A DNA stretch of 64,000 bases from an uncultured Bacilli bacterium (GTDB taxonomy: Bacteria; Bacillota_I; Bacilli_A; RF39; UBA660): positions 141,512 to 205,511 of the forward strand of contig CAKOLI010000001.1 in NCBI GenBank assembly GCA_934096265.1. The letters run 5' to 3'. The notes under the pieces were generated by a model that was given only the letters and a program-made list of their open reading frames with translations, did not search any database and was not told the origin of the DNA. Positions 3,600 to 35,345 of the stretch are shown piece after piece (positions within the stretch are counted from its first letter, which is position 1; each line of letters opens with the position of its first letter). The translations under genes were made by a program, and so were the position numbers.

Positions 3600-3628
3600 T
3601 TGACATATCATAAAATTCTAAGTATAAT
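3600..3628 (+). promoter_or_regulatory. consensus sigma-A promoter of the giant surface-protein gene
   Basis: TTGACA at 3600-3605, a 17-nt spacer, TATAAT at 3623-3628. The track's TTG start at 3600 is actually the -35 box. Confidence 0.65.
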
Positions 3629-3656
3629 TAATTTATCAAGTATAGGAGGTAAACTA

Positions 3657-6600
3657 ATGAAAGATGTAAGAAAGAAAAAGTTGACTTTAATAATAAGTAT
3701 AATTACAATAATCATTCTAGCTTTATCTGGTACTTATGCTCTATTTAAATGGAACTCTGATAACACAGATATTACCCTAGATGCCCATCTAGGCATCATT
3801 TATAAAAAAGAACACGATACCCTAACAGGAACATTAAATCCCGCTAATTCTAAAGATGAAGGATTATCTACCAACATAGAATTATGGACCACAACTACCA
3901 GAACTAAAGTATATGGAACCTTATTTTTTACAGTAAAAAGCATAGATTCCCCATTAAACCAAAATAGCATGCTAAAATGGGAACTTTGGAATAATGGAAA
4001 TAAATTAAATGAAGGAGATTTTAATGGCTTTGCAAATGGAGATATTGTAGAGTTATTAAAAGATACAGAACTATCTAACTCAAAAACAATATATACACTA
4101 TACGTATGGTTAGACGATAGCCGTATCACTTCAACTGACATAAGTGGTTCTACTATGGAAGTAGACGTTGGAGCTTCTGCAGTCCAAGTACCTACTAGTG
4201 AAAGCACTATTACTGTAGTAGATAATTCACCAGCTCAAACTACTTGGGTTAAAGATTACACATTATCCCTAAAAGCAACATCTACAGAATATAACATAAC
4301 AGGATATGCTGTAACGACATCTCCGGAAAAACCATCATCATACACTTCAGTAAGCACTCCAGGACTAACATATAACTTAAACTATACAGTAGATACTAAT
4401 GATAAATACTTCGTTTGGTTTAGAAATCAAAACAACAAAGTAGCTTATGCTACAGTAGACGTAAATAAAATAGATAATACTAAACCAGAAATAGATTTAA
4501 ATGGCACTTCTTCACCTAGTATTGCATCATCTAGTGCAACTATAAGCATTCCATTAAAAATAACCGATACCCAAAGTGGTATTAATACAAGCACATTTAC
4601 CTCTAATAGCTTAACTGTTAAAGTAGGAACAACTACTGTTAATCCAACCAAGACCATTACTTATCAAAAAGTAGAAAGTGGTATATACTCATACATACTT
4701 ACTCTAACTAACGTTACTGGTAATGGCAATATATCTTTAAACATACCTGCTTCCGCGATAAGCGATGTCGTTGGTAACACCAATAATAATAAAGATTTAA
4801 TTCCAAATATTGATATAGATAATACAGCTCCAGTAGTAAATAGCATAACAGCAGAACAATATACAAGCACTATTACAATTAGTGCTAACGCTACTGATAG
4901 CTATGGAACAATAGATACATATTGGTATAGCATAGATGGAGTAAACTACTATAGTTCTAATAATTCAAATTATACATTTACAAACGTATCATCTGGTAAC
5001 TATACAGCCTATGTATACGTCAAAGATAAAGCGGGCAATAAATCAAATACATATGAAAAAACAGTATTATTTGATAACATCCCACCTACATTAACATCTC
5101 TATTAGTAACTACCACATCTGGTACGTATGCAAATGGCAAAGCTATAGATATAACTGCAACTTACAGTGAAGATATAGTAAGTAGTACAGGTGCTACCAT
5201 AACATCAACTACTGCTCCAAAACTATCTCTAAAATTTGGTTCACAAACCGCAAGAGAAGCAACATTTAAAAGTGCTAGCTCAAACAAAATAAATTATCAA
5301 ATAGTAATAAATACTACTGACCTAGGATCATTAAGCTTATCTTCATATCAAGGAACAGTATATGATGCTGCAAATAACAGCCTAACATTATCAAACGTAA
5401 GCCTAGGAGGAAATGCGATTCAGGCATCTACTAAAGCAAAAATAGATACAACTTATTATACAACCCTAGCTTCTGCAATAAATACATCAAGTACTACAAA
5501 AACTATAACAATGGTAAATGATACAACCGAATGTGTAACAATACCAAGTAGTAATAATATAACTCTTGATTTATCAGGCAAAACAGTAACATGTACAACA
5601 TCTAACACTCCTCTAATAACTAACAATGGAACATTAACTATAAAATCTGGAACAACAGGGGGAACATTAAATAGTACTTACTATGCTATAGAAAATAAAG
5701 GTAGCCTAACACTTACAAGTGGTACAATCAAATCAACTAACAGCATCGCTGTAAATAATAACTCTACCGCTACAAATGCAAAAGGTGCATCATTATACGT
5801 AAATGGAGCAGAGGTAATCTCAACTAGTAATATAGGTATAAATAACGCGACAACAGGTATTATAACTATAGCATCTGGTACAGTAAAAGGTACCCAAAGT
5901 GGTATATACAATGTATCGACAGGAACAATAAATATAGGCTTATCAAGTGATACTTTAAGTACAACATCTCCTGCAATATATAACACAACAACATCTTCAT
6001 ATGGAGTATATATGAATAACGGAGGAACCCTAAATATTAATAATGGAGCTATCTACACTGCAAATACAAGCGTTGGAACAGCTTACTATAAAGGAACTTC
6101 AACCCTAACAGCAAGAAGTGGTTACCATGTTACAACATCAACTGAATCAGTATCTGGTGTAAGCAATAAAAAATCTTACCTAATAAGTGGAACAACACAA
6201 ATCCAATATCAATACAGGAATTATGACTCTTGTATAAAAAAAGAATGTGTAGGAGGAAATGTAACTAATTCTTCATGTGGATACGCAAGTTGTGTTAATA
6301 GTAATTGTTCTTGTGCTAAATGGAATTACACTACAACATGTGGATCATGGGTAGAAGGTACCTGTGAAAAATCTGGATATAATTTTGATACTACTGCGGA
6401 ATGTAATAGGCAAGGCACAAGTTGCACCGCATATACATCGTGTTCTGCTGGTGGTCAAGCTGGTAGCGGATATTATTGTTGCGATTACACTAGAACATGT
6501 ACCAAAAAGAAAACAAGTTGTAACACATATAATTCATGTCAAGATAGTTCATGTGGATACGCAACATGTTATGACTCCTGTGCAAATCTAGAATGTGTGG

Positions 6601-6728
6601 GAGGCTATACTGCTTGGACAAATTGGTCAACGAGCACTTTGTCTGGATACTCAAATTGTCAAAAGAGAACATGTAATCTAAACCCTGAAGGTGTAGTCAC
6701 TACATGTGGCACTGCTGGAAGTTGTTAG
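3657..6728 (+). CDS. giant exported modular protein: TasA/camelysin-like N-domain, Ig-like modules, beta-helix-like repeats, Cys-rich tail
   Basis: ATG 3657 follows AGGAGG (3644-3649). The N-terminus is KKK + TM + LSGTYALFKWNSD, resembling SipW-dependent signals. The N-domain ends YTLYVWLD..VDVGASAVQ. DNT(K/A)P-type Ig linkers and YVYVKDKAGN are present. GTL/GTI-x-I repeats span about aa 620-830. There are 24 Cys in the last 165 aa. Confidence 0.85.
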   Translation: MKDVRKKKLTLIISIITIIILALSGTYALFKWNSDNTDITLDAHLGIIYKKEHDTLTGTLNPANSKDEGLSTNIELWTTTTRTKVYGTLFFTVKSIDSPLNQNSMLKWELWNNGNKLNEGDFNGFANGDIVELLKDTELSNSKTIYTLYVWLDDSRITSTDISGSTMEVDVGASAVQVPTSESTITVVDNSPAQTTWVKDYTLSLKATSTEYNITGYAVTTSPEKPSSYTSVSTPGLTYNLNYTVDTNDKYFVWFRNQNNKVAYATVDVNKIDNTKPEIDLNGTSSPSIASSSATISIPLKITDTQSGINTSTFTSNSLTVKVGTTTVNPTKTITYQKVESGIYSYILTLTNVTGNGNISLNIPASAISDVVGNTNNNKDLIPNIDIDNTAPVVNSITAEQYTSTITISANATDSYGTIDTYWYSIDGVNYYSSNNSNYTFTNVSSGNYTAYVYVKDKAGNKSNTYEKTVLFDNIPPTLTSLLVTTTSGTYANGKAIDITATYSEDIVSSTGATITSTTAPKLSLKFGSQTAREATFKSASSNKINYQIVINTTDLGSLSLSSYQGTVYDAANNSLTLSNVSLGGNAIQASTKAKIDTTYYTTLASAINTSSTTKTITMVNDTTECVTIPSSNNITLDLSGKTVTCTTSNTPLITNNGTLTIKSGTTGGTLNSTYYAIENKGSLTLTSGTIKSTNSIAVNNNSTATNAKGASLYVNGAEVISTSNIGINNATTGIITIASGTVKGTQSGIYNVSTGTINIGLSSDTLSTTSPAIYNTTTSSYGVYMNNGGTLNINNGAIYTANTSVGTAYYKGTSTLTARSGYHVTTSTESVSGVSNKKSYLISGTTQIQYQYRNYDSCIKKECVGGNVTNSSCGYASCVNSNCSCAKWNYTTTCGSWVEGTCEKSGYNFDTTAECNRQGTSCTAYTSCSAGGQAGSGYYCCDYTRTCTKKKTSCNTYNSCQDSSCGYATCYDSCANLECVGGYTAWTNWSTSTLSGYSNCQKRTCNLNPEGVVTTCGTAGSC

Positions 6729-6738
6729 GAGGCATAAA

Positions 6739-7473
6739 ATGAAAAATATATTAAATAAAAATAATAATAAATTACTTTTAATACTTCTAGTATTAGTTAT
6801 TGGGGCGATTTTACTAATCGTCCTAATAAATACAGACAAAAAACAAAAAGATCCTTTTGATAATAACAAAAATGATAACAAAGAAATTGCAAACGTAACG
6901 CCAGATGATGTAAAAAAACTATACAACATATTAACTAGTAACACTTGCAATATCAAATATACATTTGATTTTAGTAATAATAAAACCATCAAAACAGAAG
7001 ATATGAGCGAAACTGATAAATTAACTATTATCTTCAATAACTTAAAATATAACAACATTATAAAAGATAAAATAAGTATAGAAGAGTATAATACCTATGC
7101 TAAAAATATCCTCGGTAATAGCACTAAAATACCTTCTACATTTAAAGACTTTAACTATGATGGTAATACTTACAATATAGAAAAAAATAAAATTATTAAA
7201 AATACCAGTACCTGCAATACCAAAGAAGAATATAAAAGCGCTCTTTATAGTTATTCATATAACTTATATGATCTAAGTATCTATATAAACTATATAGAAA
7301 TAAAAAATAATAAAGCATATGACTTAGATGGAAAACTAATAGATACATATACAAAAGAAAATGAAGAACGTATTATGAATAGTGCTACTAGTTATGTATA
7401 TAACTTTAAGAAAAATACAAATGGATATTACTTACAACAAGTATCTCTTGCAGTTAAAGAAACTAATAAATAA
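6739..7473 (+). CDS. membrane-anchored hypothetical protein
   Basis: ATG 6739 follows GGAGG, which overlaps the upstream stop. It has an N-terminal TM (LLLILLVLVIGAILLIVL) and an Asn/Lys-rich ectodomain with two Cys (TCN..TCN). Confidence 0.65.
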   Translation: MKNILNKNNNKLLLILLVLVIGAILLIVLINTDKKQKDPFDNNKNDNKEIANVTPDDVKKLYNILTSNTCNIKYTFDFSNNKTIKTEDMSETDKLTIIFNNLKYNNIIKDKISIEEYNTYAKNILGNSTKIPSTFKDFNYDGNTYNIEKNKIIKNTSTCNTKEEYKSALYSYSYNLYDLSIYINYIEIKNNKAYDLDGKLIDTYTKENEERIMNSATSYVYNFKKNTNGYYLQQVSLAVKETNK

Positions 7474-7511
7474 AAATAAAATAAAATAAATATAATATTA
7501 TAGGTGATTAT

Positions 7512-8522
7512 ATGAAAAAAATAACATTTATAATATTTTTCCTTTTTATAATAACATTAACAATACCCTTATCATCCCTAAAAAATACTAAAATAACATG
7601 TCAAAACACTAAAAAAGACAACATCGAAGCCCATTATCCTACATATAACATAAATAAACTAGATACTTATATAAAAAATCATATAAATAATATCATAAAT
7701 AATACCTCAAGTAATAATAACCTATATATAGATTATGATACTATAAATAATAAAGATAATATTAAAACAATAATATATACATATATAGATCAAAAAGGAT
7801 TAATAAAAAATAATATTACTGAAATTGATTATAATATAAAAACTAAAAATATAACTAAAGATATAAAAATAATAACCACTAGTAACAACTATAATATAGT
7901 AAATAACAAAGTAATTGATAAAAATAAAAAAATAATATCCTTCACCTTTGATGATGGCCCTAGTTATAACACCATAAAAATAGCAAACATTCTAAAGAAA
8001 TATAATGCTACTGCAACATTCTTTGTATTAGGTAATAAAGTAGAAAAATACGAAAAAACACTTAAATATTTAAAAGATAATAACATGGAAATAGGTAATC
8101 ATACATACACCCATAAATTCTTATCTAAATTAAAAGAAGAAGATATTATGCTAGAAATAAATAATACTCAAGAAGAAATATATAGAGTTACTAATACATA
8201 TCCAACATTATTTAGACCGAGTTATGGAACTGTATCTAATAAATTAAGAAGACTATCCCCAATGCCCCTTATTATATGGAACCTAGATACCTTAGATTGG
8301 AAATATCATAATTCTAATAAAATAGCAAATAAAATATTAAATAAAGTAAAAGATGGCGATATTATTCTTATGCATGATACATATTCCGCGACCGTAAATG
8401 CTGTAAATATAGTAATCCCTAAACTAATAGAACAAGGTTATGAAATAGTAAGCGTAAGTGAACTATTTTACTATAAAAACATAATTCCTACCTACGGCAA
8501 ATATTACGGACATATTAATTAA
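7512..8522 (+). CDS. polysaccharide (peptidoglycan) deacetylase, PdaC-like
   Basis: N-terminal signal/TM. NodB-homology motifs FTFDDGP, H-x-x-x-H (GNHTYTH), LFRPSYG and ILMHD. Confidence 0.85.
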   Translation: MKKITFIIFFLFIITLTIPLSSLKNTKITCQNTKKDNIEAHYPTYNINKLDTYIKNHINNIINNTSSNNNLYIDYDTINNKDNIKTIIYTYIDQKGLIKNNITEIDYNIKTKNITKDIKIITTSNNYNIVNNKVIDKNKKIISFTFDDGPSYNTIKIANILKKYNATATFFVLGNKVEKYEKTLKYLKDNNMEIGNHTYTHKFLSKLKEEDIMLEINNTQEEIYRVTNTYPTLFRPSYGTVSNKLRRLSPMPLIIWNLDTLDWKYHNSNKIANKILNKVKDGDIILMHDTYSATVNAVNIVIPKLIEQGYEIVSVSELFYYKNIIPTYGKYYGHIN

Positions 8523-8586
8523 TACATCTTGAAAAATAATTATATTTATTATATAATTATAATGTTTTAGTAAGTAGGGTGATAAA

Positions 8587-9153
8587 ATGAAAAACAAACT
8601 ATATAGATTTGTAAGAGCACTAGGAGTACCACTTTTTAAACTCCTATATAGACCAACAATTATTGGTATTAGTAACATTCCTACCTCAGGTAGAATCGTT
8701 CTAGCGGGAAATCACACTAATAATTTTGATTGTGCCCTCTTAATATCATCAACCAAAAGAACAATTCATTTCCTAGCTAAAAATGAATTACACAAAGGTA
8801 AACTAGGATGGTTCTTCACTTCAATGGGAACTATCCCAGTAGATAGAAATAATAAAGATACAAATGCATTATCAACTGCCATAGAAGTATTAAATAATAA
8901 TGAAGTAATTGGAATATTCCCAGAAGGTACAACTACCAAAGATGGAAGCCTTCTTCCCTTCAAAGTAGGCGCAGTAGTCATGGCAAATAGAACAAACTCA
9001 AAAATAGTTCCATTCGCAATTACAGGTGAATACAAACTATTTAGAAAAAACATTAAAATAACTTTTGCCTCTCCATATACTCCTAAAAACGATATCAGCT
9101 TAGCCAACGATGAACTAAGAAATAAAGTCATTAAACTAAAAGAGTCTAATTAG
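8587..9153 (+). CDS. lysophospholipid (1-acyl-glycerol-3-phosphate) acyltransferase family
   Basis: HX4D motif (NHTNNFD), FPEGT and FKVGA blocks. Confidence 0.8.
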   Translation: MKNKLYRFVRALGVPLFKLLYRPTIIGISNIPTSGRIVLAGNHTNNFDCALLISSTKRTIHFLAKNELHKGKLGWFFTSMGTIPVDRNNKDTNALSTAIEVLNNNEVIGIFPEGTTTKDGSLLPFKVGAVVMANRTNSKIVPFAITGEYKLFRKNIKITFASPYTPKNDISLANDELRNKVIKLKESN

Positions 9154-9167
9154 AAAGAAGAAAATCT

Positions 9168-10904
9168 ATGAAAAATTATTTAAATAAACTATATTATTAT
9201 CTTAAAAGAAAATTTAATAAAAGGAAACATGATGATGAAGAACCTATTAATATGCACCTAGAATATCCAGATATTAGCTTATATGAATTAATAGAAAATA
9301 CCGCGAATAAATATCCAAATAACATTGCCTATGAATACTATGGCCATGTTGTAACTTATAAAGATTTTATTAAGAAAATCAAAACCACTGCCTCTGCCTT
9401 AAAGAAAATAGGAGTTAAAAAAAAAGATAGAGTAACTATATGCATGCCTAATACCCCGAGTGCGGTTATCACTTTTTATGCCATAAACATGGTAGGAGCA
9501 ACTGCAAATATGATACACCCATTATCATCAGAAAATGAAATCCTAATGTACTTACAAATGGCAAAAAGCAAATACTTACTAGTAATAGATATGGATTATG
9601 AAAAAATCTGTAATATAATGGATAAAACAGAACTAGAACGCATCATAGTAAGCATACCCAACGAAGAAATGACAAACACTAAAAAAGCCCTTTACTGGTT
9701 CTTTACAGGAAGAAAAAACAAAATAAAACGCAACCCCAACACCATGCTATTTAAAGAATTTTATCATTTAGGGAACCCTAACGAAGATAATTTACTAACT
9801 CCTGCTTCCGCGGATGAAGAAGCGGTCATCCTATACAGTGGAGGAACCACCGGAGAACCTAAAGGCATAGTCTTATCAAATAGAAACTTTAACGCAGAAG
9901 CAATCGAATGCGAAGTAATGTGTAAAACTGCTAAAGAAGGAGACTCAATCTTATCTATAATGCCAATCTTCCATGCTTTTGGACTAGGTATATGTATTCA
10001 TACTATATTCTATATTGGCATGAAAGCAATATTAATCCCAACATTTAACGCCAAAAAATTTGGCTCACTAATTAAAAAGTATCATCCTAACTTTATAATT
10101 GGAGTACCTACCTTATTTGAAGCTCTACTTAAAAATAATAATCTAAAGAAAAATGACTTATCTTGTGTAACATGTGTTATCTCAGGCGGTGATAACCTAT
10201 CTTCTTCTCTAAAAGAAAAAGTAGACGAATTTTTAAAAACTCATGGTTCTAAAGCTCAAGTACGAGAAGGTTATGGATTAACTGAATGCGTTGGAGCTAG
10301 CTGTCTAACTCCATATAATAAATACAAAGAAAAAAGTATTGGACTTCCTTTACCAGATATAACCTACAAAATAGTAAAACCAACTACTCATGATGAAGTA
10401 GAACGTGGTATTGATGGAGAAATCTGTATAAATGGTCCAACCGTAATGATGGGATATTTAGATGACCCTAAAGAAACTTCTAACGTACTAAGAATACATG
10501 ACGATGGCAAACTTTGGCTACATACAGGAGACTTAGGATGCATGGATAGCGAAGGATTTGTCTACTTCAAACAAAGACTAAAAAGAATAATAGTATCATC
10601 AGGATATAACATCTATCCTAGCCATGTAGAAAATATTATCAACTCCCATCCACTAGTCCTAACATCAACCGTAATTGGTATTGACCATCCATACAAAGTC
10701 CAAGTAGCTAAAGCATATATTGTATTAAAAGAAAACGTAAAACCAAACTATACAACCAAAAAAAGCATCAAAGAACATTGCATCAAAAACTTAGCTAAAT
10801 ATTCCTTACCATACGAATATGTTTTTATTGATGAATTACCCAAAACTAAAATAGGCAAAATAGCATATAAAAAACTAGAACAAGATGCCTTAAAAAAAGA
10901 GTAA
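9168..10904 (+). CDS. AMP-dependent synthetase / long-chain fatty-acid-CoA ligase family
   Basis: AMP-binding motif YSGGTTGEPKG, plus GYGLTE, TGD and a C-terminal KxGK (KTKIGKI). Confidence 0.85.
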   Translation: MKNYLNKLYYYLKRKFNKRKHDDEEPINMHLEYPDISLYELIENTANKYPNNIAYEYYGHVVTYKDFIKKIKTTASALKKIGVKKKDRVTICMPNTPSAVITFYAINMVGATANMIHPLSSENEILMYLQMAKSKYLLVIDMDYEKICNIMDKTELERIIVSIPNEEMTNTKKALYWFFTGRKNKIKRNPNTMLFKEFYHLGNPNEDNLLTPASADEEAVILYSGGTTGEPKGIVLSNRNFNAEAIECEVMCKTAKEGDSILSIMPIFHAFGLGICIHTIFYIGMKAILIPTFNAKKFGSLIKKYHPNFIIGVPTLFEALLKNNNLKKNDLSCVTCVISGGDNLSSSLKEKVDEFLKTHGSKAQVREGYGLTECVGASCLTPYNKYKEKSIGLPLPDITYKIVKPTTHDEVERGIDGEICINGPTVMMGYLDDPKETSNVLRIHDDGKLWLHTGDLGCMDSEGFVYFKQRLKRIIVSSGYNIYPSHVENIINSHPLVLTSTVIGIDHPYKVQVAKAYIVLKENVKPNYTTKKSIKEHCIKNLAKYSLPYEYVFIDELPKTKIGKIAYKKLEQDALKKE

Positions 10905-10924
10905 TTATATAAATGAGGTGTAAA

Positions 10925-12337
10925 ATGACATTATTAGAAAAATACAAACAAGAATTTATAAAAAACTATAAACTATTCAAAAACAAGAAAACAAGAAAAC
11001 AAGAAATACCTAATATTTTAACATTATCAAGACTACTTTCTCCTATAATAATCATCCCCCTAGTATTAAAAAATAAATATAATCTAGCATTAATATTTAT
11101 CCTAATATTTGCATTAACAGATCTCCTAGATGGCTATATTGCAAGAAAATACAACTACGTTAGTAAATTAGGTAGAGAAATAGACCCTGTATGTGATAAA
11201 ATTTTTCTAGGAAGCTTACTTATTCCTTTAATCATCAAAAAACAATCACTACTTGTAAACATCCTCCTAGAACTTATAATTAGCATTATCTGTATAATTA
11301 ATAAAATTAAAGGTTATAACACTAAGGTAAATGGCTTTGGCAAATTCAAAACGGCTTTTATATACACATTAATTAGTTACACATACTTAAATCTATTTAT
11401 AAATACTAATAATAATATATATATAATCCTATACATCCTAACAATAATACTCCAAGTATCAACAATTATTACATATCTTACAAGAACTATAAAAAAAGAA
11501 CAAGAAGAAGATATACACATAAATAGCTTTGGTTATAAACTAATAAGACCTATATTTAAAGTATTTTTTAATCTCTACTTTAGACCTAAAGTAATAGGTA
11601 AAGAAAACATTCCTAAAGAAGGTCCATTCATTCTATGTGGTAACCATACCAACGTCCATGACCAATTTCCTATTATGATGAATACCAAAAGAGTAATACA
11701 CTACATCGCCAAAAAAGAATACTTTGACTCCAAAATGGGTTTCTTCTTCCGTTTTGTAGGACAAATACCAGTAGATAGAGAAAATAAAGATACAAATGCT
11801 AAAGAAGAAGCAATAGAAGTCCTAAAACATAATCATGCTCTAGGTATATTCCCAGAAGGAACAAGAAACGTCTTAGTATATAAAAATGACATTGTAAATA
11901 ATTTATACCCCCTTGTAGAACATACAGTAACTAAAGAACAATTTATCAAAATACTAAAAGATAACCAAACTAAATTATCTCAACTACATCTATTAGATAA
12001 ATTAAAAGAAACCTCTCGTATTAAACAAGAAGAATATAACTCATATCTCTTAGATTTACCAAACAAACTAAAACACTTACTAAAAAATAACGTCATAACT
12101 GAAGAAGAATATCGCAACTCATTACTTTTAGATTTTAAATATGGAGCAGTTTCTTTTGCTAGCAAAACAGATGCTTATATCTTACCATACGCCACATGTG
12201 GCAGATATCTTCATCATAGTAAAGATCTACGCATAATAATAGGAAAACCATTCAAAGTAGGAAATCTATCCCTAGAAGAAGCAAACCAAAAATTAAGAAA
12301 TACAATCATTGATATAATTATTAAAAATAGCAAATAA
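10925..12337 (+). CDS. fusion: CDP-alcohol phosphatidyltransferase (PgsA-like) + LPLAT acyltransferase with helical insert
   Basis: The N-terminal half has DLLDGYIARKYNYVSKLGREIDPVCD, which matches D-x2-DG-x2-AR-x8-G-x3-D-x3-D exactly. The C-terminal half has NHTNVHD (HX4D) and FPEGTRN. About 80 aa are inserted before FKYGAVSFA compared with the 8587 paralogue. ATG 10925 follows GAGGTG. Confidence 0.75.
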   Translation: MTLLEKYKQEFIKNYKLFKNKKTRKQEIPNILTLSRLLSPIIIIPLVLKNKYNLALIFILIFALTDLLDGYIARKYNYVSKLGREIDPVCDKIFLGSLLIPLIIKKQSLLVNILLELIISIICIINKIKGYNTKVNGFGKFKTAFIYTLISYTYLNLFINTNNNIYIILYILTIILQVSTIITYLTRTIKKEQEEDIHINSFGYKLIRPIFKVFFNLYFRPKVIGKENIPKEGPFILCGNHTNVHDQFPIMMNTKRVIHYIAKKEYFDSKMGFFFRFVGQIPVDRENKDTNAKEEAIEVLKHNHALGIFPEGTRNVLVYKNDIVNNLYPLVEHTVTKEQFIKILKDNQTKLSQLHLLDKLKETSRIKQEEYNSYLLDLPNKLKHLLKNNVITEEEYRNSLLLDFKYGAVSFASKTDAYILPYATCGRYLHHSKDLRIIIGKPFKVGNLSLEEANQKLRNTIIDIIIKNSK

Positions 12338-12353
12338 CACTTTGCTTTTTTTT
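12329..12353 (+). terminator. intrinsic terminator after the lipid operon
   Basis: Stem agcaaa (12329-12334) / tttgct (12341-12346) followed by a T8 run. It overlaps the stop codon. Confidence 0.5.
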
Positions 12354-12391
12354 CTTAATATGATAAAATTATAACTATAGGAGAGTGTAAT

Positions 12392-14323
12392 ATGAGAAAG
12401 AAAAACGGTTTTACCTTAATAGAAATAATAGTAATAATTTTACTAATTGCACTTATATCTACCATTACCATAATAACTGTCCAAGACAAAATAAATACCT
12501 CTAAAGATACAGCTCAAATACTTACTAATGATGCTCTTTTTCAAGCGGCTAATGGATATGTAACGGAATTTAAAAATAATTCTAACTCTTGGTATAAAGA
12601 ATATACAGGAAGCGTAGGGAACTATCAAGAAACAGGTAATGAATATGCTTGTACTACTATTCAAATGTTAATAGATAAAGGCTTTCTAAAAAATAACTTA
12701 AAAAATCCTTCTACTAAAGAAGATATAAATCATGATATATTTATAAAAGTAGTAAGAGATTCTCAAACTAAAGTAATCCAAAAACAAGTAATACTAGATA
12801 GTGAAGACTGTTCTAGCCTTGATGACGAACTCCCTAGTGTTACCTTTACTCCAAATGGCCTAGATATTCCACAAAGGCCACTTACAGTAACAATAACCCC
12901 TAAAGTAGGCCCATCAGGTATAAATAAAATGACATACTACCTAAAACAAGAAGGAAAAATAAAAACTACAGAGTACACCTCTACTAGTGAAGAAAATATA
13001 GAACTAAACATTGAAGGTACCGATATACATGTATGTGCAAATGTAATAAATGGTATTGACAAAACCAGTGGAGAAATATGCAGTAACTCGTTTATTATAG
13101 ATAATACTAGCCCAGTAGTTGAAAAGCTAGATTATACCCTAGGTTCTAACACAATTAAAGCCCACATTATCGAAAAAAACATAGACTCATACTGCATAAC
13201 CAAAGAAAATAATTCCACCTCTTGTACATGGCATAATATAAATGTAAATGACTTTGATATAACAGTATCAGAAAGTGCCACATACTACGTATACGTAAAA
13301 GATAAAGTAGATTTAATAAACGATAACACTACTAGTAATGTAGTAACAGTAAATATTGACTCTATCACACCATCTGTTAGTTTTAATCCTAATGGTAATA
13401 CCAATTACACAAATAGTAAAGAAGTAACAATTACCCCCGAAGTAGGAATATCATCAGTAAAAAGTATGAATTACTACATCAAAATAAATAATACTAAATA
13501 TAAAGAAAATACTTCAAATACAAAAGATGCAAAAACACTCTTAGTAGATATAGAAGGCTCTGATATATATGTATGTGCAAATATAACAAATGGTATTAAC
13601 ATACCAAGTGGAGAAATATGCAGTAACCCATTCATGATAGATAACACAAGCCCCATAGTAACCGCTACTTCCACAGTAGGTTCTTTAAATATAAATATCT
13701 CTGTAATAGAAAAAAATATTGACTCCTATTGTGTAACACAAGAAAATAGTTCCACTAATTGCACATGGACAAAAATAGCAGTAAATACATTTACTAAAGA
13801 AGCAGATGCAAGTGGCACATATAACATTTATGTAAAAGATAAAGCGGGTCACATTGGTAAAGGCCAAGTAACTATCATCCTAGAAAAAACAGCACAAATA
13901 ACCTGTACCGTCTCAAGTACAAGCAGTAGCTGTACAAAAACAGACACCATCAGTGACCTTAACAAAATAGTTAGCATAACTAGCGATACTGGTAGTGTAA
14001 ATTATACCCAAAATGGTACTTCACTAACCCTAAACTTTACAGGTGGTACCTACCAAGCAGGCACAGCCACATCATGTAACTGCACTACCACATCAACAAT
14101 ACAATGTGCATGTGGTGAGGAATGCTGTACCCCTCCAGGAGGAGGAGCCTCTGGAACATCTAGATGTGTAATGGGTCCTCCAGGAGGTTGCTTAAACTGT
14201 ACTGACATAAGCTGTGTCGCAGGAATGTGTCCATTTAATGACTGTGATACTAAAGAAACAACTTCTTGTAATACTTGTTATACATATAAATATACAGCAA
14301 CAATAAAATATATCCCAAAATAA
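12392..14323 (+). CDS. large modular type IV pilin-like protein (prepilin-type N-terminus, duplicated Ig-like module, Cys-rich tail)
   Basis: MRKKNG|FTLIEIIV is a class III signal with Gly-1, Phe+1 and Glu+5. A pilin-like head follows (..YACTTIQMLIDKGFL..). There are two 179-aa repeats and 16 Cys in the last 139 aa. Confidence 0.8.
   Translation: MRKKNGFTLIEIIVIILLIALISTITIITVQDKINTSKDTAQILTNDALFQAANGYVTEFKNNSNSWYKEYTGSVGNYQETGNEYACTTIQMLIDKGFLKNNLKNPSTKEDINHDIFIKVVRDSQTKVIQKQVILDSEDCSSLDDELPSVTFTPNGLDIPQRPLTVTITPKVGPSGINKMTYYLKQEGKIKTTEYTSTSEENIELNIEGTDIHVCANVINGIDKTSGEICSNSFIIDNTSPVVEKLDYTLGSNTIKAHIIEKNIDSYCITKENNSTSCTWHNINVNDFDITVSESATYYVYVKDKVDLINDNTTSNVVTVNIDSITPSVSFNPNGNTNYTNSKEVTITPEVGISSVKSMNYYIKINNTKYKENTSNTKDAKTLLVDIEGSDIYVCANITNGINIPSGEICSNPFMIDNTSPIVTATSTVGSLNINISVIEKNIDSYCVTQENSSTNCTWTKIAVNTFTKEADASGTYNIYVKDKAGHIGKGQVTIILEKTAQITCTVSSTSSSCTKTDTISDLNKIVSITSDTGSVNYTQNGTSLTLNFTGGTYQAGTATSCNCTTTSTIQCACGEECCTPPGGGASGTSRCVMGPPGGCLNCTDISCVAGMCPFNDCDTKETTSCNTCYTYKYTATIKYIPK
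12833..13906 (+). repeat. tandem in-gene duplication, 2 x 537 nt (12833-13369 and 13370-13906)
   Basis: Both units begin PSV(T/S)F(T/N)PNG. They share ..D I(H/Y)VCAN..SGEICSN..IDNTSP(V/I)V..IEKNIDSYC(I/V)T..YVKDK with clear nucleotide similarity. Confidence 0.8.
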
Positions 14324-14339
14324 AGAAAGGAATAATAAT

Positions 14340-14741
14340 ATGAAAGAAAAAAATAATTACCTAGCTATACTAGCTCTATCATTCTCAGTACTTTCTCTAA
14401 TATCAACAGTATTCTTATACTACGTAGTAACAAACAATTATAAAGAACTAAATGCTAATATAGATACTATAAAAAAAGAAAATACCAACACTCAAGATAA
14501 ACCAACCATGACCAAACTTCTAAATGACTTTGCCAGAAAACTAATTAATGATAACAAACTATCAAAAAAAGATTCCACTGATAACAAATTAACACTCACT
14601 TATAACGAAATGATTACTAAATACGGATTAAAAACAAACTACGAATGTATCGAAGAAGACACCTACGTAACATACACATTCTATTCTGAAAACGACAACG
14701 TTAAAGACATCTTAGTAAGTCAAAACTGTTATGAAAAATAA
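14340..14741 (+). CDS. small membrane-anchored secreted protein, paralogue of the 14731 gene
   Basis: N-terminal TM. Shares (A/Y)R(K)LIN..N(K/E)LTLT(Y/L)N(E/D)(M/L)I..C..(V/I)T(Y/I)TF..(Q/L)(N/S)C with the next gene. Confidence 0.65.
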   Translation: MKEKNNYLAILALSFSVLSLISTVFLYYVVTNNYKELNANIDTIKKENTNTQDKPTMTKLLNDFARKLINDNKLSKKDSTDNKLTLTYNEMITKYGLKTNYECIEEDTYVTYTFYSENDNVKDILVSQNCYEK

Positions 14742-15066
14742 AATAATACTCCTTATCTTAATCATCCTTACATCTACTGGTTGTAAGAAAAATACAGAAT
14801 ATAAAGAAGAAAGTATAAATACATTTATCTATAGACTAATAAATACAGGTAGTATAACTAATAAATCCGCTATCAACAATGAATTAACTCTAACATTAAA
14901 CGACCTAATAAATAACTACAACTACATCTATAAAGGTACTTGTAACAAAAATAATACAACCATAAAAATTACCTTTGATGAAGAAGGAAAAGTAGCAAAT
15001 ACAACTATAAATTTAAGCTGTGATATTAAAGAAGAAAGTAACATTCAAAATATTTATTTTGATTAA
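14731..15066 (+). CDS. small lipoprotein, paralogue of the 14340 gene
   Basis: Lipobox LTSTGC. The start overlaps the upstream stop by 11 nt. Two conserved Cys. Confidence 0.65.
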   Translation: MKNKIILLILIILTSTGCKKNTEYKEESINTFIYRLINTGSITNKSAINNELTLTLNDLINNYNYIYKGTCNKNNTTIKITFDEEGKVANTTINLSCDIKEESNIQNIYFD

Positions 15067-15123
15067 AAACATTGACAAAGCAAATTAAAAATATTATTAT
15101 ATAAATAGGTTTAAGGAGGAAAT

Positions 15124-15600
15124 ATGAAAAAAATATTTAAATTAGGAATTATTATCATATGCCTATTCATATTTACTGGATGTAATAAAAAAACAAATCA
15201 AGAAGAGCAAAAAGAATTTTATATGGGTGACACAATATCTATAAAAAACTTTGACATAACATTTTTAAATTACTCTATTAGAAAAGCTATCGGTTCTAAC
15301 GAAAAACATCAAGACTTAGTATTCTTAGAAGTAAATTTAAAAAATACTAGTAAAAAAGAGCAAAGGTTCACAAACAGTAGCTATAAAGTATTTGGACCAG
15401 ACAACACAGAACTAGATATTATATCAAATTCAAAATATACTACTTCTCTAAATAACGTAGGCAACATAAGAAGTGATGGTACCACCAGTGGACACCTTAT
15501 CTTTGAATATGCTGGATATGGTAAATATTACTTAGAATTTGTAAATACAAAAGGTTCTAAAGTAACATTAATACTTGATATCTATGAAAATATAGAATAG
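15124..15600 (+). CDS. lipoprotein, DUF4352-like
   Basis: Lipobox FTGC. The GDTISIKNFDITF..LVFLEVNLKNTS pattern is typical of DUF4352 Ig-like lipoproteins. Assigned from memory. Confidence 0.55.
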   Translation: MKKIFKLGIIIICLFIFTGCNKKTNQEEQKEFYMGDTISIKNFDITFLNYSIRKAIGSNEKHQDLVFLEVNLKNTSKKEQRFTNSSYKVFGPDNTELDIISNSKYTTSLNNVGNIRSDGTTSGHLIFEYAGYGKYYLEFVNTKGSKVTLILDIYENIE

Positions 15601-15649: not shown

Positions 15650-16339
15650 ATGAATAATAATTTTAAAAACTTACCCAACGAAGAAAAACCCCGTGAAAGA
15701 CTAAAAAAATATGGAAGAGCAAATCTATCTAATGAAGAATTACTATCTATCATACTAAAAACAGGAACCCATAACGTACCTGTAGATGAACTATCCAAAA
15801 ACCTCCTAGTAGAATTAAAAAGCATTACTAATTTAAAAGATATAACCTTATCTAAATTAACAAGCATAAAAGGAATAGGGGAAGTAAAAGCCTTATCTCT
15901 ATATGCTTCAATCGAACTAGGAAGAAGAATTTTTCAGTCAAAACCACTTACTAAAAAATATAACATAAGTAACCCAATAGACATAATTAACTATTACAAC
16001 GACATACTAAAAGATAAATTACAAGAAGAATTTCATGTCCTATACCTAGATAGCAATAACACCATCATCTCATCCAAAAGACTCTTTATAGGAACCATCA
16101 ACCGTTCCATCGTTCATCCAAGAGAAATATTCAAAGAAGCCTATCTAAACTCTGCTTGTAAAATAGTCTGCATCCATAATCATCCATCAGGAAGTGTCAC
16201 TCCCAGCAAAGAAGATATAATGATTACTAAAAGCCTAGATGAAATAGGCAGAATACATGATATAAAACTAGTAGACCACTTAATAATAGGCCTAGACAAA
16301 TATTTTAGCTTTTATGAGAATAAATATTTAAAAAACTAA
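15650..16339 (+). CDS. radC: RadC-family JAB-domain protein
   Basis: N-terminal PRERL and HhH (IKGIGEVKA). JAMM motif HNHPSG with S..D. Confidence 0.9.
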   Translation: MNNNFKNLPNEEKPRERLKKYGRANLSNEELLSIILKTGTHNVPVDELSKNLLVELKSITNLKDITLSKLTSIKGIGEVKALSLYASIELGRRIFQSKPLTKKYNISNPIDIINYYNDILKDKLQEEFHVLYLDSNNTIISSKRLFIGTINRSIVHPREIFKEAYLNSACKIVCIHNHPSGSVTPSKEDIMITKSLDEIGRIHDIKLVDHLIIGLDKYFSFYENKYLKN

Positions 16340-16399
16340 ATTATACTTTTAAAAAAGATATTTATGTTATATAATAAAAATATACAAGGAGGATAAAAT

Positions 16400-17254
16400 A
16401 TGAATAAATTTAAAAAACTATCTATAAAACATATAATACTAATAATTATAGTTATCCTCCTAGGTTTACTTCTAATATTTAACTACACCCTAAAAAAAGA
16501 TAGAAAACTAAATCCCATTGAAGCCCTAGTAAAAGATACAATAACATGTGTAACCAAAGTAATACGTGCCCCAATAGACTATGTAGGCTCACTAATAAAA
16601 GACTTTAAAGAATTAAAAAATGTCCAAAAAGAAAACCAAATATTAAAAGATAAATTAGAAGAAATAGATTTTATAAATACCAAAAATACAGAACTTATGC
16701 GTCAAATAAAAAAACAACAAGAAGAACTAGGCATAGAATATAACCTAACAGAATATGAATACTTAAATAGTACTATAACAAATCGTAATATAGGATATTG
16801 GTATAACACAATTACAATCGATAAAGGAAGCTACAACGGAGTAAAAAAAGATATGCCCGTTGTAAACAAAAAAGGCTTAATAGGAAGAGTAGTAAGCACT
16901 ACTAACTTTACATCTACAGTAAAACTAATAACTACAACAGATACATCTAACAAACTATCAGTTCTAGTTACTAATCAAGAATACAATCTTTATGGTCTTC
17001 TTTATAAATATGATGAAAAAGAAAACGTCTTACTAGTAGAAGGAATAAGTAACACTGACAAAGTAAGTATAAATGACTTAGTCTATACAAGTGGCATGGG
17101 AGGTATATTTCCAAGTGGTATCTTAATAGGAAAAGTATCATCTATTAAAACAGACTCATATGGCTTATCTAAAATAATTAGAGTATCACCATCAGTAGAC
17201 TTTTCATCACTTAGTTATGTAACCATATTAAAAAGAAAGGATGAATTAAAATGA
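16400..17254 (+). CDS. mreC: rod shape-determining protein MreC
   Basis: TM plus coiled coil (ENQILKDKLEE), with beta-barrel motifs GLIGRV and GGIFPSGILIG. Confidence 0.85.
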   Translation: MNKFKKLSIKHIILIIIVILLGLLLIFNYTLKKDRKLNPIEALVKDTITCVTKVIRAPIDYVGSLIKDFKELKNVQKENQILKDKLEEIDFINTKNTELMRQIKKQQEELGIEYNLTEYEYLNSTITNRNIGYWYNTITIDKGSYNGVKKDMPVVNKKGLIGRVVSTTNFTSTVKLITTTDTSNKLSVLVTNQEYNLYGLLYKYDEKENVLLVEGISNTDKVSINDLVYTSGMGGIFPSGILIGKVSSIKTDSYGLSKIIRVSPSVDFSSLSYVTILKRKDELK

Positions 17255-17763
17255 TTTATCCTTTAATTATTATAACAATATCCTTCCTCCTAGATGGCCT
17301 AATATCCTCATACATAAACATATTCTCATCTAATATATCTATATTCTCAACAATCTATACAGTCCTAGCACTAAGCATGGTAACAAAATATATTAAAGAT
17401 GAAAAAAAATATTATCTAGTATACCTATTAACAGGCCTACTATTCGATATGGCTTATACAAACACATTTATACTTAACATGACAATATTCTTCCTCTTAG
17501 GATTAATAACAAAACACCTACTATATATCCTAACAGATAACCTTATAAATAACATCCTAATCTCATATATAAATATAGTAGTATACTACATAACTACCCA
17601 ACTAATATTAGTAATCTCAAACTATACCACTTTTAATAGTTATTTATTACTAAAAATAATTTATAGTAGCATAATTATGAGTATTATATATACTATCATA
17701 CTATATATATCAAATAGCCTATTTAAACAAAACAACTTTAAACATTACCACAAAAAGTTATAA
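17251..17763 (+). CDS. mreD: rod shape-determining protein MreD
   Basis: A 170-aa polytopic membrane protein. ATGA overlap with mreC. Position fits. Confidence 0.7.
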   Translation: MIYPLIIITISFLLDGLISSYINIFSSNISIFSTIYTVLALSMVTKYIKDEKKYYLVYLLTGLLFDMAYTNTFILNMTIFFLLGLITKHLLYILTDNLINNILISYINIVVYYITTQLILVISNYTTFNSYLLLKIIYSSIIMSIIYTIILYISNSLFKQNNFKHYHKKL

Positions 17764-17801
17764 ATAAACATAATCACTCATATTATTTACTGGTGAATAA
17801 T

Positions 17802-18404
17802 ATGGAAATAAATCTAAATAGTAAGTATCTAAAAAACAAAAAAGAAAACAAAAAAACATATAAAAAATATCTAGTAGGCCTATCATACCGCATATTAATT
17901 AGCGTCCTTATATTCCTATCTCTTGCCATATATATAAAAGCATCTAATAAAAATAAAGAAATAGTATACCAAAATATATATAACAATAACTTTCTATATA
18001 CCAAAGCTAAAAAATATTATGATAAATACTTAAAAGGAGTATATCCTTTCTCTAAAATATTTAAAGAAGATACCAACCTAGTATTTAATGAAACCCTACA
18101 TTATACTGCCCAAAATAAATACCTAGATGGAGTAAAATTAACTGTAGATACTAACTATTTAGTACCAGTATTAAAATCTGGTATAGTAATATATATTGGA
18201 GAAAAACCTAACTATGGTTCTACCGTAATAATCCAAGGAACTGATGAAATAGAAATATGGTACGCTAATATTTCAAATATAAACGTCTCACTATATGACT
18301 ATGTAACCATAGGAACCCTTCTAGGAGAAGTAAAAGATAATAATCTCTACTTAGTATATAGTCAAAATGGAAAGTATTTAAACTATGAAGAATTTCTTAA
18401 ATAA
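17802..18404 (+). CDS. degenerate M23/LytM-domain membrane protein, SpoIVFA-like by position
   Basis: TM plus a C-terminal LytM-like fold (..GIVIYIGEKPNYGSTVIIQG..IGTLLGEV..). The catalytic His residues are replaced. It sits between mreD and the M50 protease, as in Bacillus. Confidence 0.55.
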   Translation: MEINLNSKYLKNKKENKKTYKKYLVGLSYRILISVLIFLSLAIYIKASNKNKEIVYQNIYNNNFLYTKAKKYYDKYLKGVYPFSKIFKEDTNLVFNETLHYTAQNKYLDGVKLTVDTNYLVPVLKSGIVIYIGEKPNYGSTVIIQGTDEIEIWYANISNINVSLYDYVTIGTLLGEVKDNNLYLVYSQNGKYLNYEEFLK

Positions 18405-19176: not shown

Positions 19177-19279
19177 TGTTTGTAAGACCTCTGTTGTTAA
19201 TTCAACCGCACTAAAAAGGTTATAAGTGATTAAATCCACCTCTAAGGCGAGTCTTATTTAAAATTTAAGGAGGTAAAAT
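19177..19279 (+). promoter_or_regulatory. structured 5' leader of rplU (candidate L21-leader type autoregulatory RNA)
   Basis: Long-range pairing gtaagac (19182-19188) / gtcttat (19251-19257) encloses about 60 nt. The position matches the Bacillota L21 leader. No covariance model was run. Confidence 0.4.
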
Positions 19280-33839: not shown

Positions 33840-34409
33840 ATGGATAACAACAAAAAAGTATATCTAGTAATAGCCATAATATCCATAATAATGTTAGCAA
33901 TGGGAGTAACTACTGCGTGGTTTACTTGGAGAAGTAGTATTAATACAGATGTAACATTTAATGTAGAAGGCTTAGATATTACCTATACAGGAGATGCTAA
34001 TATTCTAAATAAAAAGCTATATCCTACAGCCTCAATGACTAATACTGATAATATAATACATAATTTTAGTCTAGTAACAACATCAAATATAGATATATAT
34101 ACTAAAATATCACTAGATATAATTAAGTTAGATGATAATTTAAAAGATGTATCATTTAGATGGGATTTATATAAAGAAAACACATCTATTGCAAGTGGAG
34201 ATATCAGCAGTGCTACAGTAGGTAGTGACTTACTACTTACTCCATATGAAAAAATAACTACAACTCCAACTAATTACACATTATATATCTGGATAGATGG
34301 AGAACACTACAATAACCCCCTTGCCATGGGAGGTAAAGAGTTTTACTTCAAATTAAAACTAGACGCAGGCCAACAAGACTATACAACACAAAGTGATTGT
34401 TTTACATTT
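33840..34409 (+). repeat. direct repeat copy A (5' 570 nt shared with 42722-43291)
   Basis: Collinear codon-for-codon with copy B. 33911-34032 is identical to 42793-42914 (122 nt). I count about a dozen mismatches over 33900-34200. Confidence 0.85.
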
Positions 34410-35345
34410 GATGAAACTACAGGTACTATAACAGGTTACTTATGCACAAAAGGAAATAGCAATAACCTACCTGAACTAACAGAAATAGTAATACCAAGAA
34501 CCATAAATAACAAGGAAGTAACAATACTAAAATCATCAATCTTTCGTAATAAAGGTCTTACAAAAGTAGTCTTACCAACTACCTTAAAAACAATTGAAGA
34601 TGGATGCTTTGCCATAAATAATCTAAAAGAAATAATAATACCAGATGGTGTTACCAAAATAGGAGGTACCAGTTTCTGGGGAAACTCCTTAGAAAAAGTA
34701 AGTATTCCATCAACCGTCCTATCAATCGGAGGACAAGCCTTTAATAAGAATAACCTACCAGAAGAATATGCTTATATATATGCTAGAAAAGATGAAAACA
34801 AAGATGGTATTGCTGAGATAGATTATACCCAAATAGTAAGTTATGGGGGAACAAACACAAATATAGTAATACCAAATACTGTAAAAACTATTGGCACACA
34901 AGCTTTCTATAGCACTAACATAAATACCATAACCATACCAGAAGGTGTTACTAACTTAGGATATGCTTCCCTTGCAAATAATAACCTGACAAGTATAACT
35001 TTACCAGAAAGCATAACCAACATAGATACCTTAGCTCTTGCCAACAACAAATTAACTACCGTAACTATTCCTAAAAATGTAAAAGCAATAGGAACACTTG
35101 CTTTTGAAGGAAACATTTTAACATCAATATATTTATCCAAAGATATAAGCAAAGACCTAAGAATAAACACAAAATCATTCATTGTAAATGCCACTAATAA
35201 TCCAAATCTACAAGTAATATATAACCTTGCTAACTTATCCCTAGATTGGAACTTAGCTATAACTGGTACATATGGCACCGCTTTCGTAAGTGGCACAGTA
35301 ACAACCTCTGATGGAAGAACAATAACTATAACTACCAGTGAGTAA
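33840..35345 (+). CDS. surface protein: TasA/camelysin-like N-domain + BspA-type leucine-rich repeats (paralogue 1)
   Basis: TM plus MGVTTAWFTWRSS (SipW-type-like). The N-domain ends YTLYIWIDG..FKLKLDAGQQ. LRR units follow the pattern IP..V..IG..AF....L. Conserved tail GTAFVSGTVTTSDGRTITITTSE. Confidence 0.8.
   Translation: MDNNKKVYLVIAIISIIMLAMGVTTAWFTWRSSINTDVTFNVEGLDITYTGDANILNKKLYPTASMTNTDNIIHNFSLVTTSNIDIYTKISLDIIKLDDNLKDVSFRWDLYKENTSIASGDISSATVGSDLLLTPYEKITTTPTNYTLYIWIDGEHYNNPLAMGGKEFYFKLKLDAGQQDYTTQSDCFTFDETTGTITGYLCTKGNSNNLPELTEIVIPRTINNKEVTILKSSIFRNKGLTKVVLPTTLKTIEDGCFAINNLKEIIIPDGVTKIGGTSFWGNSLEKVSIPSTVLSIGGQAFNKNNLPEEYAYIYARKDENKDGIAEIDYTQIVSYGGTNTNIVIPNTVKTIGTQAFYSTNINTITIPEGVTNLGYASLANNNLTSITLPESITNIDTLALANNKLTTVTIPKNVKAIGTLAFEGNILTSIYLSKDISKDLRINTKSFIVNATNNPNLQVIYNLANLSLDWNLAITGTYGTAFVSGTVTTSDGRTITITTSE

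Follow-up and report, generated by a model that had tools for sequence, protein, structure and literature searches.

An unannotated N-terminal domain family and a modular type IV pilin at a surface-protein locus of an uncultured low-GC bacterium

Modular type IV pilins are a widespread class of more than 1200 proteins with 264 architectures, and are probably adhesins displayed at the filament tip (PMC8179133). Proteins of the BsaA/TasA family, highly divergent in sequence and often present as tandem paralogs, polymerize by turning a disordered N-terminal loop into a donor strand; a Clostridium perfringens locus has the order sipW-bsaA-bsaB-bsaC, with srtB adjacent (PMC11580942). Here we analyze a 12-kb region (positions 3600-15600) of a 64,000-nucleotide stretch of DNA, hereafter the window, which contains two genes for very large surface proteins, named 3657 and 12392 after their first positions. 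The original prediction, made from the sequence alone, had read this region as an undescribed system in which adhesin cargo is grafted onto two polymerizing scaffolds around an embedded lipid operon. We show that the 3657 protein begins with a domain (the N-domain) of a large unannotated N-terminal family, which is the new part of the finding, and that the 12392 protein is a modular type IV pilin, a member of an already described class. Our best explanation, to which we give an even chance when taken as a whole, is that the region is not one machine but a pair of fast-evolving genes for large disulfide-rich adhesins, each consisting of an N-terminal carrier and swappable cargo, with the 12392 protein acting at a pilus tip and the 3657 protein through a docking or fiber head. 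The two genes, the parts of the 3657 protein and two paralogs of its N-terminal part are as follows (aa, amino acids; Ig, immunoglobulin; an arrow marks a predicted cleavage site):

3657-6728, + strand: secreted modular surface protein of 1023 aa, with a signal peptide (residues 1-28), the N-domain (residues ~29-182), Big_13-type Ig-like modules, a repetitive region and a 24-Cys tail (residues 859-1023)
3657-3740, + strand: predicted cleavable signal peptide of the 3657 protein (KKK, a 15-residue hydrophobic h-region, SGTYA↓LF), the cleavage being putative
3741-4202, + strand: N-domain, consisting of a conserved N-terminal extension (~18 residues, without structure in the model) and a nine-strand beta-sandwich
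6231-6725, + strand: Cys-rich C-terminal tail with 24 Cys, ending in the conserved pattern QKRTCNL..EG.VT.CG.AG.C
12392-14323, + strand: modular type IV pilin of 643 aa, with the leader MRKKNG↓FTLIE, a pilin head, two ~180-aa two-Ig units and a 16-Cys tail ending CYTYKYTATIKYIPK
33840-35345, + strand: paralog with the same signal and N-domain, carrying BspA-type leucine-rich repeats
42722-44164, + strand: paralog with the same signal and N-domain, carrying BspA-type leucine-rich repeats

The gene positions, the Ig-like motifs shared by the two large proteins and their Cys counts all proved exact, and the predicted architecture of a carrier followed by Ig-like modules and a Cys-rich tail was borne out for both. 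The shared motifs are IDNTAPVV, IDNTSPVV and IDNTSPIV on the one hand, and YVYVKDKAG, YVYVKDKV and IYVKDKAG on the other; overall, the similarity of the two proteins is weak (26-27% identity, E about 8e-4). By exact count, 24 Cys lie in residues 859-1023 of the 3657 protein and 16 in residues 505-629 of the 12392 protein. These proteins end in ...TTCGTAGSC and ...TATIKYIPK, respectively, with no LPXTG motif and no C-terminal hydrophobic segment in either, and neither full-length sequence matches PDB sequences at E <= 0.01. The 3657 protein starts with MKDVRKKK and a hydrophobic stretch, followed by SGTYALFKWNSD, and contains a Thr/Ser/Gly-rich repetitive region that appears beta-helix-like, by eye only. 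A TTG at 3600 was considered as its start codon and dropped in favor of the ATG at 3657: positions 3600-3628 form a perfect promoter-like site, and public gene calls give the 1023-aa product.

The first ~180 residues of the 3657 protein are common to the two leucine-rich repeat (LRR) proteins 33840 and 42722 (29% identity, E 3e-11). In an exhaustive search, an N-domain profile built from eight sequences matched 1732 clusters, formed at 50% identity, when the cut-off was E<=1e-3, and 942 when it was E<=1e-10; Pfam and NCBIfam have no model for this domain. It begins within the first 45 residues in all but one of 211 retrieved proteins (210/211; 150-4162 aa). The 196 full-length matches range from 177 to 4162 aa and include 30 stand-alone proteins shorter than 260 aa and 79 of at least 700 aa. 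Behind the domain, family members carry BspA-type LRR (LRR_5), DUF285, Listeria-Bacteroides repeats (Flg_new), Dockerin, ALK_LTK glycine-rich and Big_13 modules. Firmicutes and Mollicutes have surface proteins of the BspA-type LRR, Listeria-Bacteroides-repeat and DUF285 kinds, and the repeats of these recur as cargo in 33840, 42722 and many other members of the family. To our knowledge, descriptions of such surface proteins usually give them an ordinary signal peptide and an anchor of the LPXTG, choline-binding or lipoprotein type, and no N-domain.

The N-terminal consensus of 167 members reads M-x-KKK, about 17 hydrophobic residues, and then GG[TS]YA[YF]W[TS]WxSxxNKNVVFNT. The h-region has a median length of 17 residues (range 13-21); the predicted -1 position is Ala in 158 of the 167 sequences and Ser in the others, and the -3 position is Thr or Ser in 164. 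Judged by this pattern, the N-terminus of the N-domain is a predicted signal-peptidase site, unusually conserved on both sides. AlphaFold2 (AF2), run on a 35-sequence alignment, confidently models the N-domain as a nine-strand beta-sandwich (predicted local distance difference test score, pLDDT, 88.3; predicted template-modeling score, pTM, 0.81) and leaves the first ~18 mature residues unpacked, including much of the conserved N-terminal motif.

Small (187-199 aa) and larger N-domain genes stand in tandem in eight loci of related genomes (loci are labeled L001 and so on). Such arrays of ~190-aa and larger paralogs lie at L014:9411-11614, L016:9411-11611, L017:8438-11536, L018:6217-9785, L019:9932-12235, L021:9283-10510 and 16116-18245, L023:401-2571 and L005:6144-18172, and their layout resembles that of an operon for a major and a minor subunit. 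One apparent stand-alone subunit, P0249 (291 aa, 59% identical to the N-domain of 3657), was set aside as probably a truncated or fragmented copy, because its gene stands where L001 has the full-length gene and a contig ends 0.7 kb away.

The TasA/camelysin-type N-terminus that had been claimed for the 3657 protein is no more than suggested, by near-threshold scores of relatives and some genomic context. The SGTYA↓LF of 3657 resembles the GGGTWA↓AF of TasA. As in the fibers of TasA, CalY, BsaA and AbpA (PMC9674648, PMC9245690, PMC11580942), a signal ending in GG-T-aromatic-A-aromatic precedes a beta-sandwich of ~150-200 aa, and the N-domain also shares with TasA/BsaA a conserved N-terminal segment that is disordered in the monomer model and the occurrence of tandem paralogs. 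The cut-off of TIGR04088, the model of the SipW-cognate signal, is 19 bits; four relatives come near it with 15.4-17.3 bits, and a fifth has 10.7. A paralog at L021:16880-17608 scores both on Peptidase_M73 (19.5 bits, cut-off 22.5, E 1e-3) and on the N-domain profile (31.5 bits), and thus bridges the two families. In a Foldseek search with the N-domain model, the best PDB match was AbpA (7ueg), a TasA-like archaeal bundling pilin, at a weak score (E 1.8e-3, template-modeling score, TM, 0.37). Alignment of the family with TasA by hhalign (TasA query verified against 8AUR) covers the signal region alone (E 0.004, probability 8.7%). Moreover, locus L020 encodes a SipW-type (endoplasmic reticulum/archaeal-type) signal peptidase (L020:5188-5787; TIGR02228, 76.7 bits versus a cut-off of 51.85; Bacillus SipW model, 53.9 bits) 1.4 kb upstream of a stand-alone N-domain gene, with two small secreted proteins between them and a class-B-sortase-like gene directly downstream of the N-domain gene. 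This locus mirrors the sipW-bsaA-bsaB-bsaC and srtB arrangement of C. perfringens (PMC11580942).

A number of results weigh against such a kinship. The 3657, 33840 and 42722 proteins match neither Peptidase_M73 (PF12389) nor TIGR04088, and a Pfam scan of 60 short family members found Peptidase_M73 in one of them, weakly (E 0.026); we therefore rejected membership of the N-domain in Peptidase_M73 as that model defines it. The family profile found chance tubulin matches only among PDB sequences (E 0.1), and hhalign of the mature N-domain with TasA was not significant. The other fold matches are generic jelly rolls of the carbohydrate-binding module (CBM) type, which score alongside AbpA, and TasA itself (5of1, 8aur) is outside the top 50. 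The SipW adjacency concerns one of about 21 loci and is absent from the orthologous L011, L025 and L026; neither the window, searched by phmmer with the SipW of a relative and by motif scans, nor the L001 and L002 loci contain a SipW-type peptidase, and the window has no stand-alone small N-domain subunit. Weighing both sides, we consider it fairly probable that the N-domain is a divergent TasA/BsaA-like head with a SipW-type signal, whereas for polymerization by strand exchange, at which only the conserved N-terminal extension left unpacked in the monomer model hints, we would put the chance somewhat below even.

The surroundings of the stand-alone genes have features of their own. Four metagenome-assembled genomes (MAGs) share a conserved triad of genes, for a stand-alone N-domain protein of 187 aa, a class-B-sortase-like protein and a ~230-aa CDP-alcohol phosphatidyltransferase (L011:9998-12201, L020:7216-9688, L025:9998-12323 and L026:83-2221), and the N-domain protein of the triad has no LPXTG-type C-terminus. 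Upstream of the triad, in L020 only, lies an apparent insertion (L020:2508-7028) that includes, besides the SipW-type signal peptidase, a DUF2357 protein, a 513-aa protein that by eye resembles AAA/McrB but has no significant match in Pfam, and a pair of small secreted proteins whose signals end in NTYAWF and NTYAKY and which no model matched.

The prepilin assignment of the 12392 protein is solid. Its leader MRKKNG↓FTLIE is a class III signal, in which a short, basic leader with Gly as its last residue precedes a hydrophobic residue (+1) and, at +5, Glu; no other ORF (open reading frame) of the window has a prepilin motif. The prepilin N-terminus that had been read here is confirmed by Pfam N_methyl, the N-terminal methylation motif (PF07963; 22.7 bits versus a gathering cut-off of 21.2); the stricter TIGR02532 stays below its cut-off (14.0 versus 16.3). 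The pilin module comprises ~145 aa, with the Cys pair Cys87/Cys140 in the predicted globular head. The head has weak NCBIfam matches, all below cut-off, to the pseudopilin models GspH, GspG and ComGC; Pfam GspH reaches 24.5 bits over a cut-off of 21, but no single stretch passes alone. Homologs keep the head motif ...TTIQMLIDKGFLKN..., and the six homologs all share the KGFTLIE leader, a pilin head with a ...C.T(I/V)QMLIDKG(F/Y)L... segment, Ig-like modules and Cys-rich tails; in the three closest, the tail ends in a conserved Tyr/Thr-rich strand. Residues 141-505 (window positions 12812-13900) consist of two tandem copies of a two-Ig unit of ~180 aa (49% identical to each other, E 2e-49), each with two Cys pairs (215/230 and 268/278; 395/410 and 447/457).

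Since a pilin module and non-pilin modules are present in one polypeptide, the 12392 protein fits the definition of a modular pilin (PMC8179133), and the earlier view that the arrangement was not a described one does not hold for this half of the region. As in PilB and PilC of Streptococcus sanguinis (PMC8179133), a class III signal and a pilin module are followed by bulky modules in a monoderm host. Those pilins carry a vWA or lectin module, whereas the cargo of 12392 is the duplicated two-Ig unit and the 16-Cys tail, without a Pfam signature; and, unlike modular pilin genes situated in a pil or com cluster, 12392 adjoins genes of lipid synthesis. A prepilin peptidase encoded elsewhere would cut the protein after Gly6. 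Its hydrophobic helix would then enter a filament of the type IV or Com type, where the protein, probably located at the tip, would expose its Ig modules and Cys knot.

The two N-terminal types have adhesin modules in common: between residues 271-394 of 3657 and residues 506-629 of P0092, whose 1602 aa start with a prepilin leader, the identity is 54.8% (E 4e-26). No pilus machinery was found within 7 kb downstream of the P0092 gene. Of the earlier idea of adhesin cargo on two polymerizing scaffolds, the cargo shared by two carrier types and the prepilin assignment stand, and a TasA-type scaffold is suggestive. Weighing against polymerizing carriers in general, motif scans and inspection of all ORFs of at least 110 aa found no T2SSE, T2SSF or A24 motif in the window, and neither the window with its flanks nor the related loci analyzed showed a prepilin peptidase, assembly ATPase or platform protein. 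The absence of assembly genes from the window, SipW included, had been correctly noted.

For proteins of the 3657 type, we propose that the signal would be cleaved after Ala28, probably by a SipW-type signal peptidase. The new conserved N-terminus, unstructured in the model, would serve as a donor strand or docking peptide, by which the N-domain could link to other N-domain subunits as in TasA/BsaA/AbpA fibers. Alternatively, the N-domain might dock on a cell-bound partner such as the adjacent 244-aa protein. Either way, the Ig-like, repeat-rich and Cys-rich cargo would be held on the cell surface. A partial parallel is TapA of Bacillus subtilis, a protein of 253 aa encoded in the tapA-sipW-tasA operon, in which a TasA-like N-terminal part gives strand complementation and is followed by a C-terminal extension, a short disordered tail. 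Like TapA, the N-domain proteins would be specialized cargo-bearing subunits at a fiber end, though they are far longer. In TasA and BsaA the domain is a stand-alone matrix subunit, whereas the N-domain mostly heads multi-module proteins of great length, the longest having 4162 aa, and we found no description of such giant cargo-bearing members in the literature on TasA, CalY, BsaA and AbpA fibers (PMC9674648, PMC9245690, PMC11580942).

The N-domain could instead be a CBM-like jelly roll that binds wall or glycan noncovalently, so that after ordinary signal-peptidase cleavage the adhesin would be kept on the wall with no polymerization. Most Foldseek matches are indeed carbohydrate-binding (CBM35, CBM4-2, CBM32, CBM61 and the carbohydrate-binding domain of BcsB), with TM-scores equal to or better than that of AbpA; without LPXTG these proteins need some other retention device, and glycosyltransferase and LtaS-type genes flank some family members. 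Nevertheless, every one of these fold matches is weak (E above 1e-3, TM <=0.5), and wall binding would leave unexplained the extreme conservation across and after the cleavage site, the stand-alone ~180-aa versions in tandem with larger paralogs, and the neighboring SipW-type peptidase and sortase-B-like genes. We regard this as a minority possibility, and give similarly little weight to an uncleaved signal-anchor (the original prediction had spoken of a signal-anchor). The hydrophobic segment would then make these type II membrane proteins, with the N-domain as a membrane-proximal stalk holding the cargo outside the wall. The continuous helix formed by residues 2-24 in the first AF2 model would suit such an anchor, as would the aromatic-rich YAFWSW motif, which could lie at the membrane interface, and the window holds no dedicated peptidase. 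Yet the h-region is short for a stable anchor and is followed by a helix-breaking Gly-Gly and a near-invariant small-x-small site (Thr/Ser at -3, Ala at -1), which is the signature of cleavage; moreover, a membrane-tethered domain of ~150 aa would barely cross a Gram-positive wall. A divergent TasA/BsaA-like head remains our preferred reading of the N-domain.

A further alternative, that the whole 12 kb is a single system, turns on the genes between the two adhesins and on the promoter-like sites of the region (scored by match to the sigma-70 consensus only, their total in the region being equal to the expectation from shuffled sequence):

3600-3628, + strand: promoter-like site TTGACA-17-TATAAT, 12/12 matches to the sigma-70 consensus, just upstream of the ATG at 3657
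7512-8522, + strand: secreted polysaccharide/peptidoglycan deacetylase (Polysacc_deac_1, 113.9 bits)
8529-8557, + strand: promoter-like site, 11/12, upstream of plsC; probable boundary between transcription units
8587-9153, + strand: PlsC-type acyltransferase (Acyltransferase, 98.4 bits)
9168-10904, + strand: acyl-AMP-forming ligase (AMP-binding and AMP-binding_C)
10913-12337, + strand: fusion of a CDP-alcohol phosphatidyltransferase (PgsA-like) and a PlsC-like acyltransferase (CDP-OH_P_transf and Acyltransferase)
15072-15100: promoter-like site, 11/12, before the DUF4352 lipoprotein gene

The identities assigned to the intervening enzymes (deacetylase, acyltransferases, acyl-AMP ligase and CDP-alcohol phosphatidyltransferase) agree with Pfam, all four genes scoring well over the cut-offs. 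If the region were one system, the acyltransferases, the acyl-AMP ligase and the PgsA-like enzyme would make a special lipid that anchors or modifies the adhesins. All genes of 3600-15600 are on the + strand with short gaps between them, and the gene order from the 3657 ortholog to the pilin is retained in two relatives, L001 and L002. In L011, L020, L025 and L026, moreover, the stand-alone N-domain gene is followed first by the sortase-B-like gene and, as the second gene downstream, by a different PgsA-like gene; and archaeal sorting systems use a dedicated CDP-alcohol phosphatidyltransferase, although the NCBIfam anchor_synt_A match here has an E of only 0.11. On the other hand, the order is conserved in close relatives only, where synteny is expected by descent (73-83% identity to the window for the enzymes, 53-64% for the adhesins), while the N-domain genes of more distant genomes have unrelated housekeeping surroundings, no pilin gene and, in most cases, no lipid gene nearby. 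In L002, three unrelated opposite-strand genes are inserted exactly at the junction of the deacetylase gene and plsC; strong promoter-like sites divide the run as well, the one at 3600-3628 being intergenic and the single perfect sigma-70 consensus of the region. Besides, PlsC and PgsA belong to the core enzymes of phospholipid synthesis, and the window showed no second copy of them. A single system with an embedded lipid operon is thus not supported and is, in our view, very improbable. Because the enzymes are better conserved than the adhesins, they look like housekeeping genes; most likely they are slowly evolving, incidental neighbors, and the PgsA-like gene near stand-alone N-domain genes could equally be inherited synteny. 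The region is probably a same-strand run of two or three transcription units, in which the pilin gene may be co-transcribed with the lipid genes.

Each adhesin gene is followed by small anchored proteins:

6739-7473, + strand: g6739, membrane-anchored protein of 244 aa with a transmembrane segment and Cys70/Cys159; no family match
14340-14741, + strand: g14340, transmembrane-anchored protein of 133 aa with the Cys pair 103/130; paralog of g14731
14731-15066, + strand: g14731, predicted lipoprotein of 111 aa with an LTSTGC lipobox and the Cys pair 71/97
15124-15600, + strand: g15124, DUF4352 lipoprotein of 158 aa with its own promoter-like site

The transmembrane or lipobox N-termini and the Cys pairs foreseen for such downstream partners are present in g6739, g14340 and g14731. 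Cys70 and Cys159 of g6739 are invariant in four homologs; in L001 and L002 a homolog follows the 3657 ortholog, and in the distant L010 one with 29% identity is encoded upstream of an N-domain gene. A metagenome scan with the g6739 alignment, for partnership with the N-domain, reached two short contigs only and was uninformative. From its conserved residues and gene neighborhood, g6739 may be an accessory or docking factor. The paralogs g14340 and g14731 are 33% identical (E 1e-5), and g15124 is probably unrelated to the adhesins. A membrane-anchored thioredoxin-like protein is encoded a few genes from N-domain genes at L010:1377-1853, where a CxxC (CGYC) can be read, and at L004:2335-2811, where it is annotated PedC-like/Thioredoxin_2; these neighbors may be relevant to the many extracellular Cys pairs of the adhesins.

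The window has a GC content of ~28%, and its translations include the housekeeping genes radC, mreC, mreD, spoIVFA/B-like, murG, murB, a PBP2 gene and others. The loci of relatives encode the GPR spore protease and a small acid-soluble spore protein (SASP), and identical proteins are known from metagenome assemblies only. The host is an uncultured, probably spore-forming, low-GC gut Firmicute with a cell wall. Extension of both window ends (~10-kb flanks) added housekeeping genes only, with no pilus or SipW genes. An Rfam scan found no RNA element in 3600-15600; its sole match in the whole window is an L21 leader at 19194-19264 (RF00559, 52.1 bits), upstream of an ORF at 19280 and followed by three small ORFs that read, by eye, as rplU (the one at 19280), ysxB and rpmA.

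Other surface proteins were seen as well. At window positions 24569-27241 lies the gene of an 890-aa surface protein with an ordinary signal peptide and a C-terminal transmembrane anchor, a third anchoring style for large surface proteins in the window, and in L001 Big_2 and Cadherin-like proteins are encoded upstream of the 3657 ortholog. Toward the 3' end of the window, a RelA/SpoT-like ORF (59729-60991) seems, by eye only, to begin inside the HD domain (MHADKDTICAGLLHDTLEDT...), and its N-terminal part may be missing or frameshifted. A GNAT protein (62950-63456) identical to that of the window is encoded in L031, L032 and L033 directly downstream of two LtaS-type genes, unlike in the window, which suggests a rearrangement or strain-level variation near this end.

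With a model of the N-domain, giant proteins now called "hypothetical" in human-gut metagenomes could be annotated by the thousand and flagged as surface adhesins. More speculatively, and with the chances rather against it, the N-domain of uncultured human-gut Bacilli might be a very divergent, hitherto unrecognized branch of the TasA/BsaA donor-strand fiber family that serves as their universal carrier at the N-terminus: small stand-alone subunits would build a fiber, and paralogs with up to ~4000 aa of cargo would be woven into it or would cap it. The same genomes would then have, next to modular type IV pilins, an independent second system of the kind, with cargo exchanged between the two carriers, and it may be linked to the sortase-B-like and PgsA-like enzymes. 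If the N-domain does polymerize or dock, it would explain by what means many uncultured gut bacteria of low GC put their largest surface proteins on display without LPXTG anchors, and the TasA/BsaA fiber principle would be extended from a plain matrix to cargo-bearing subunits, the same evolutionary trick that has already been shown for type IV pilins.

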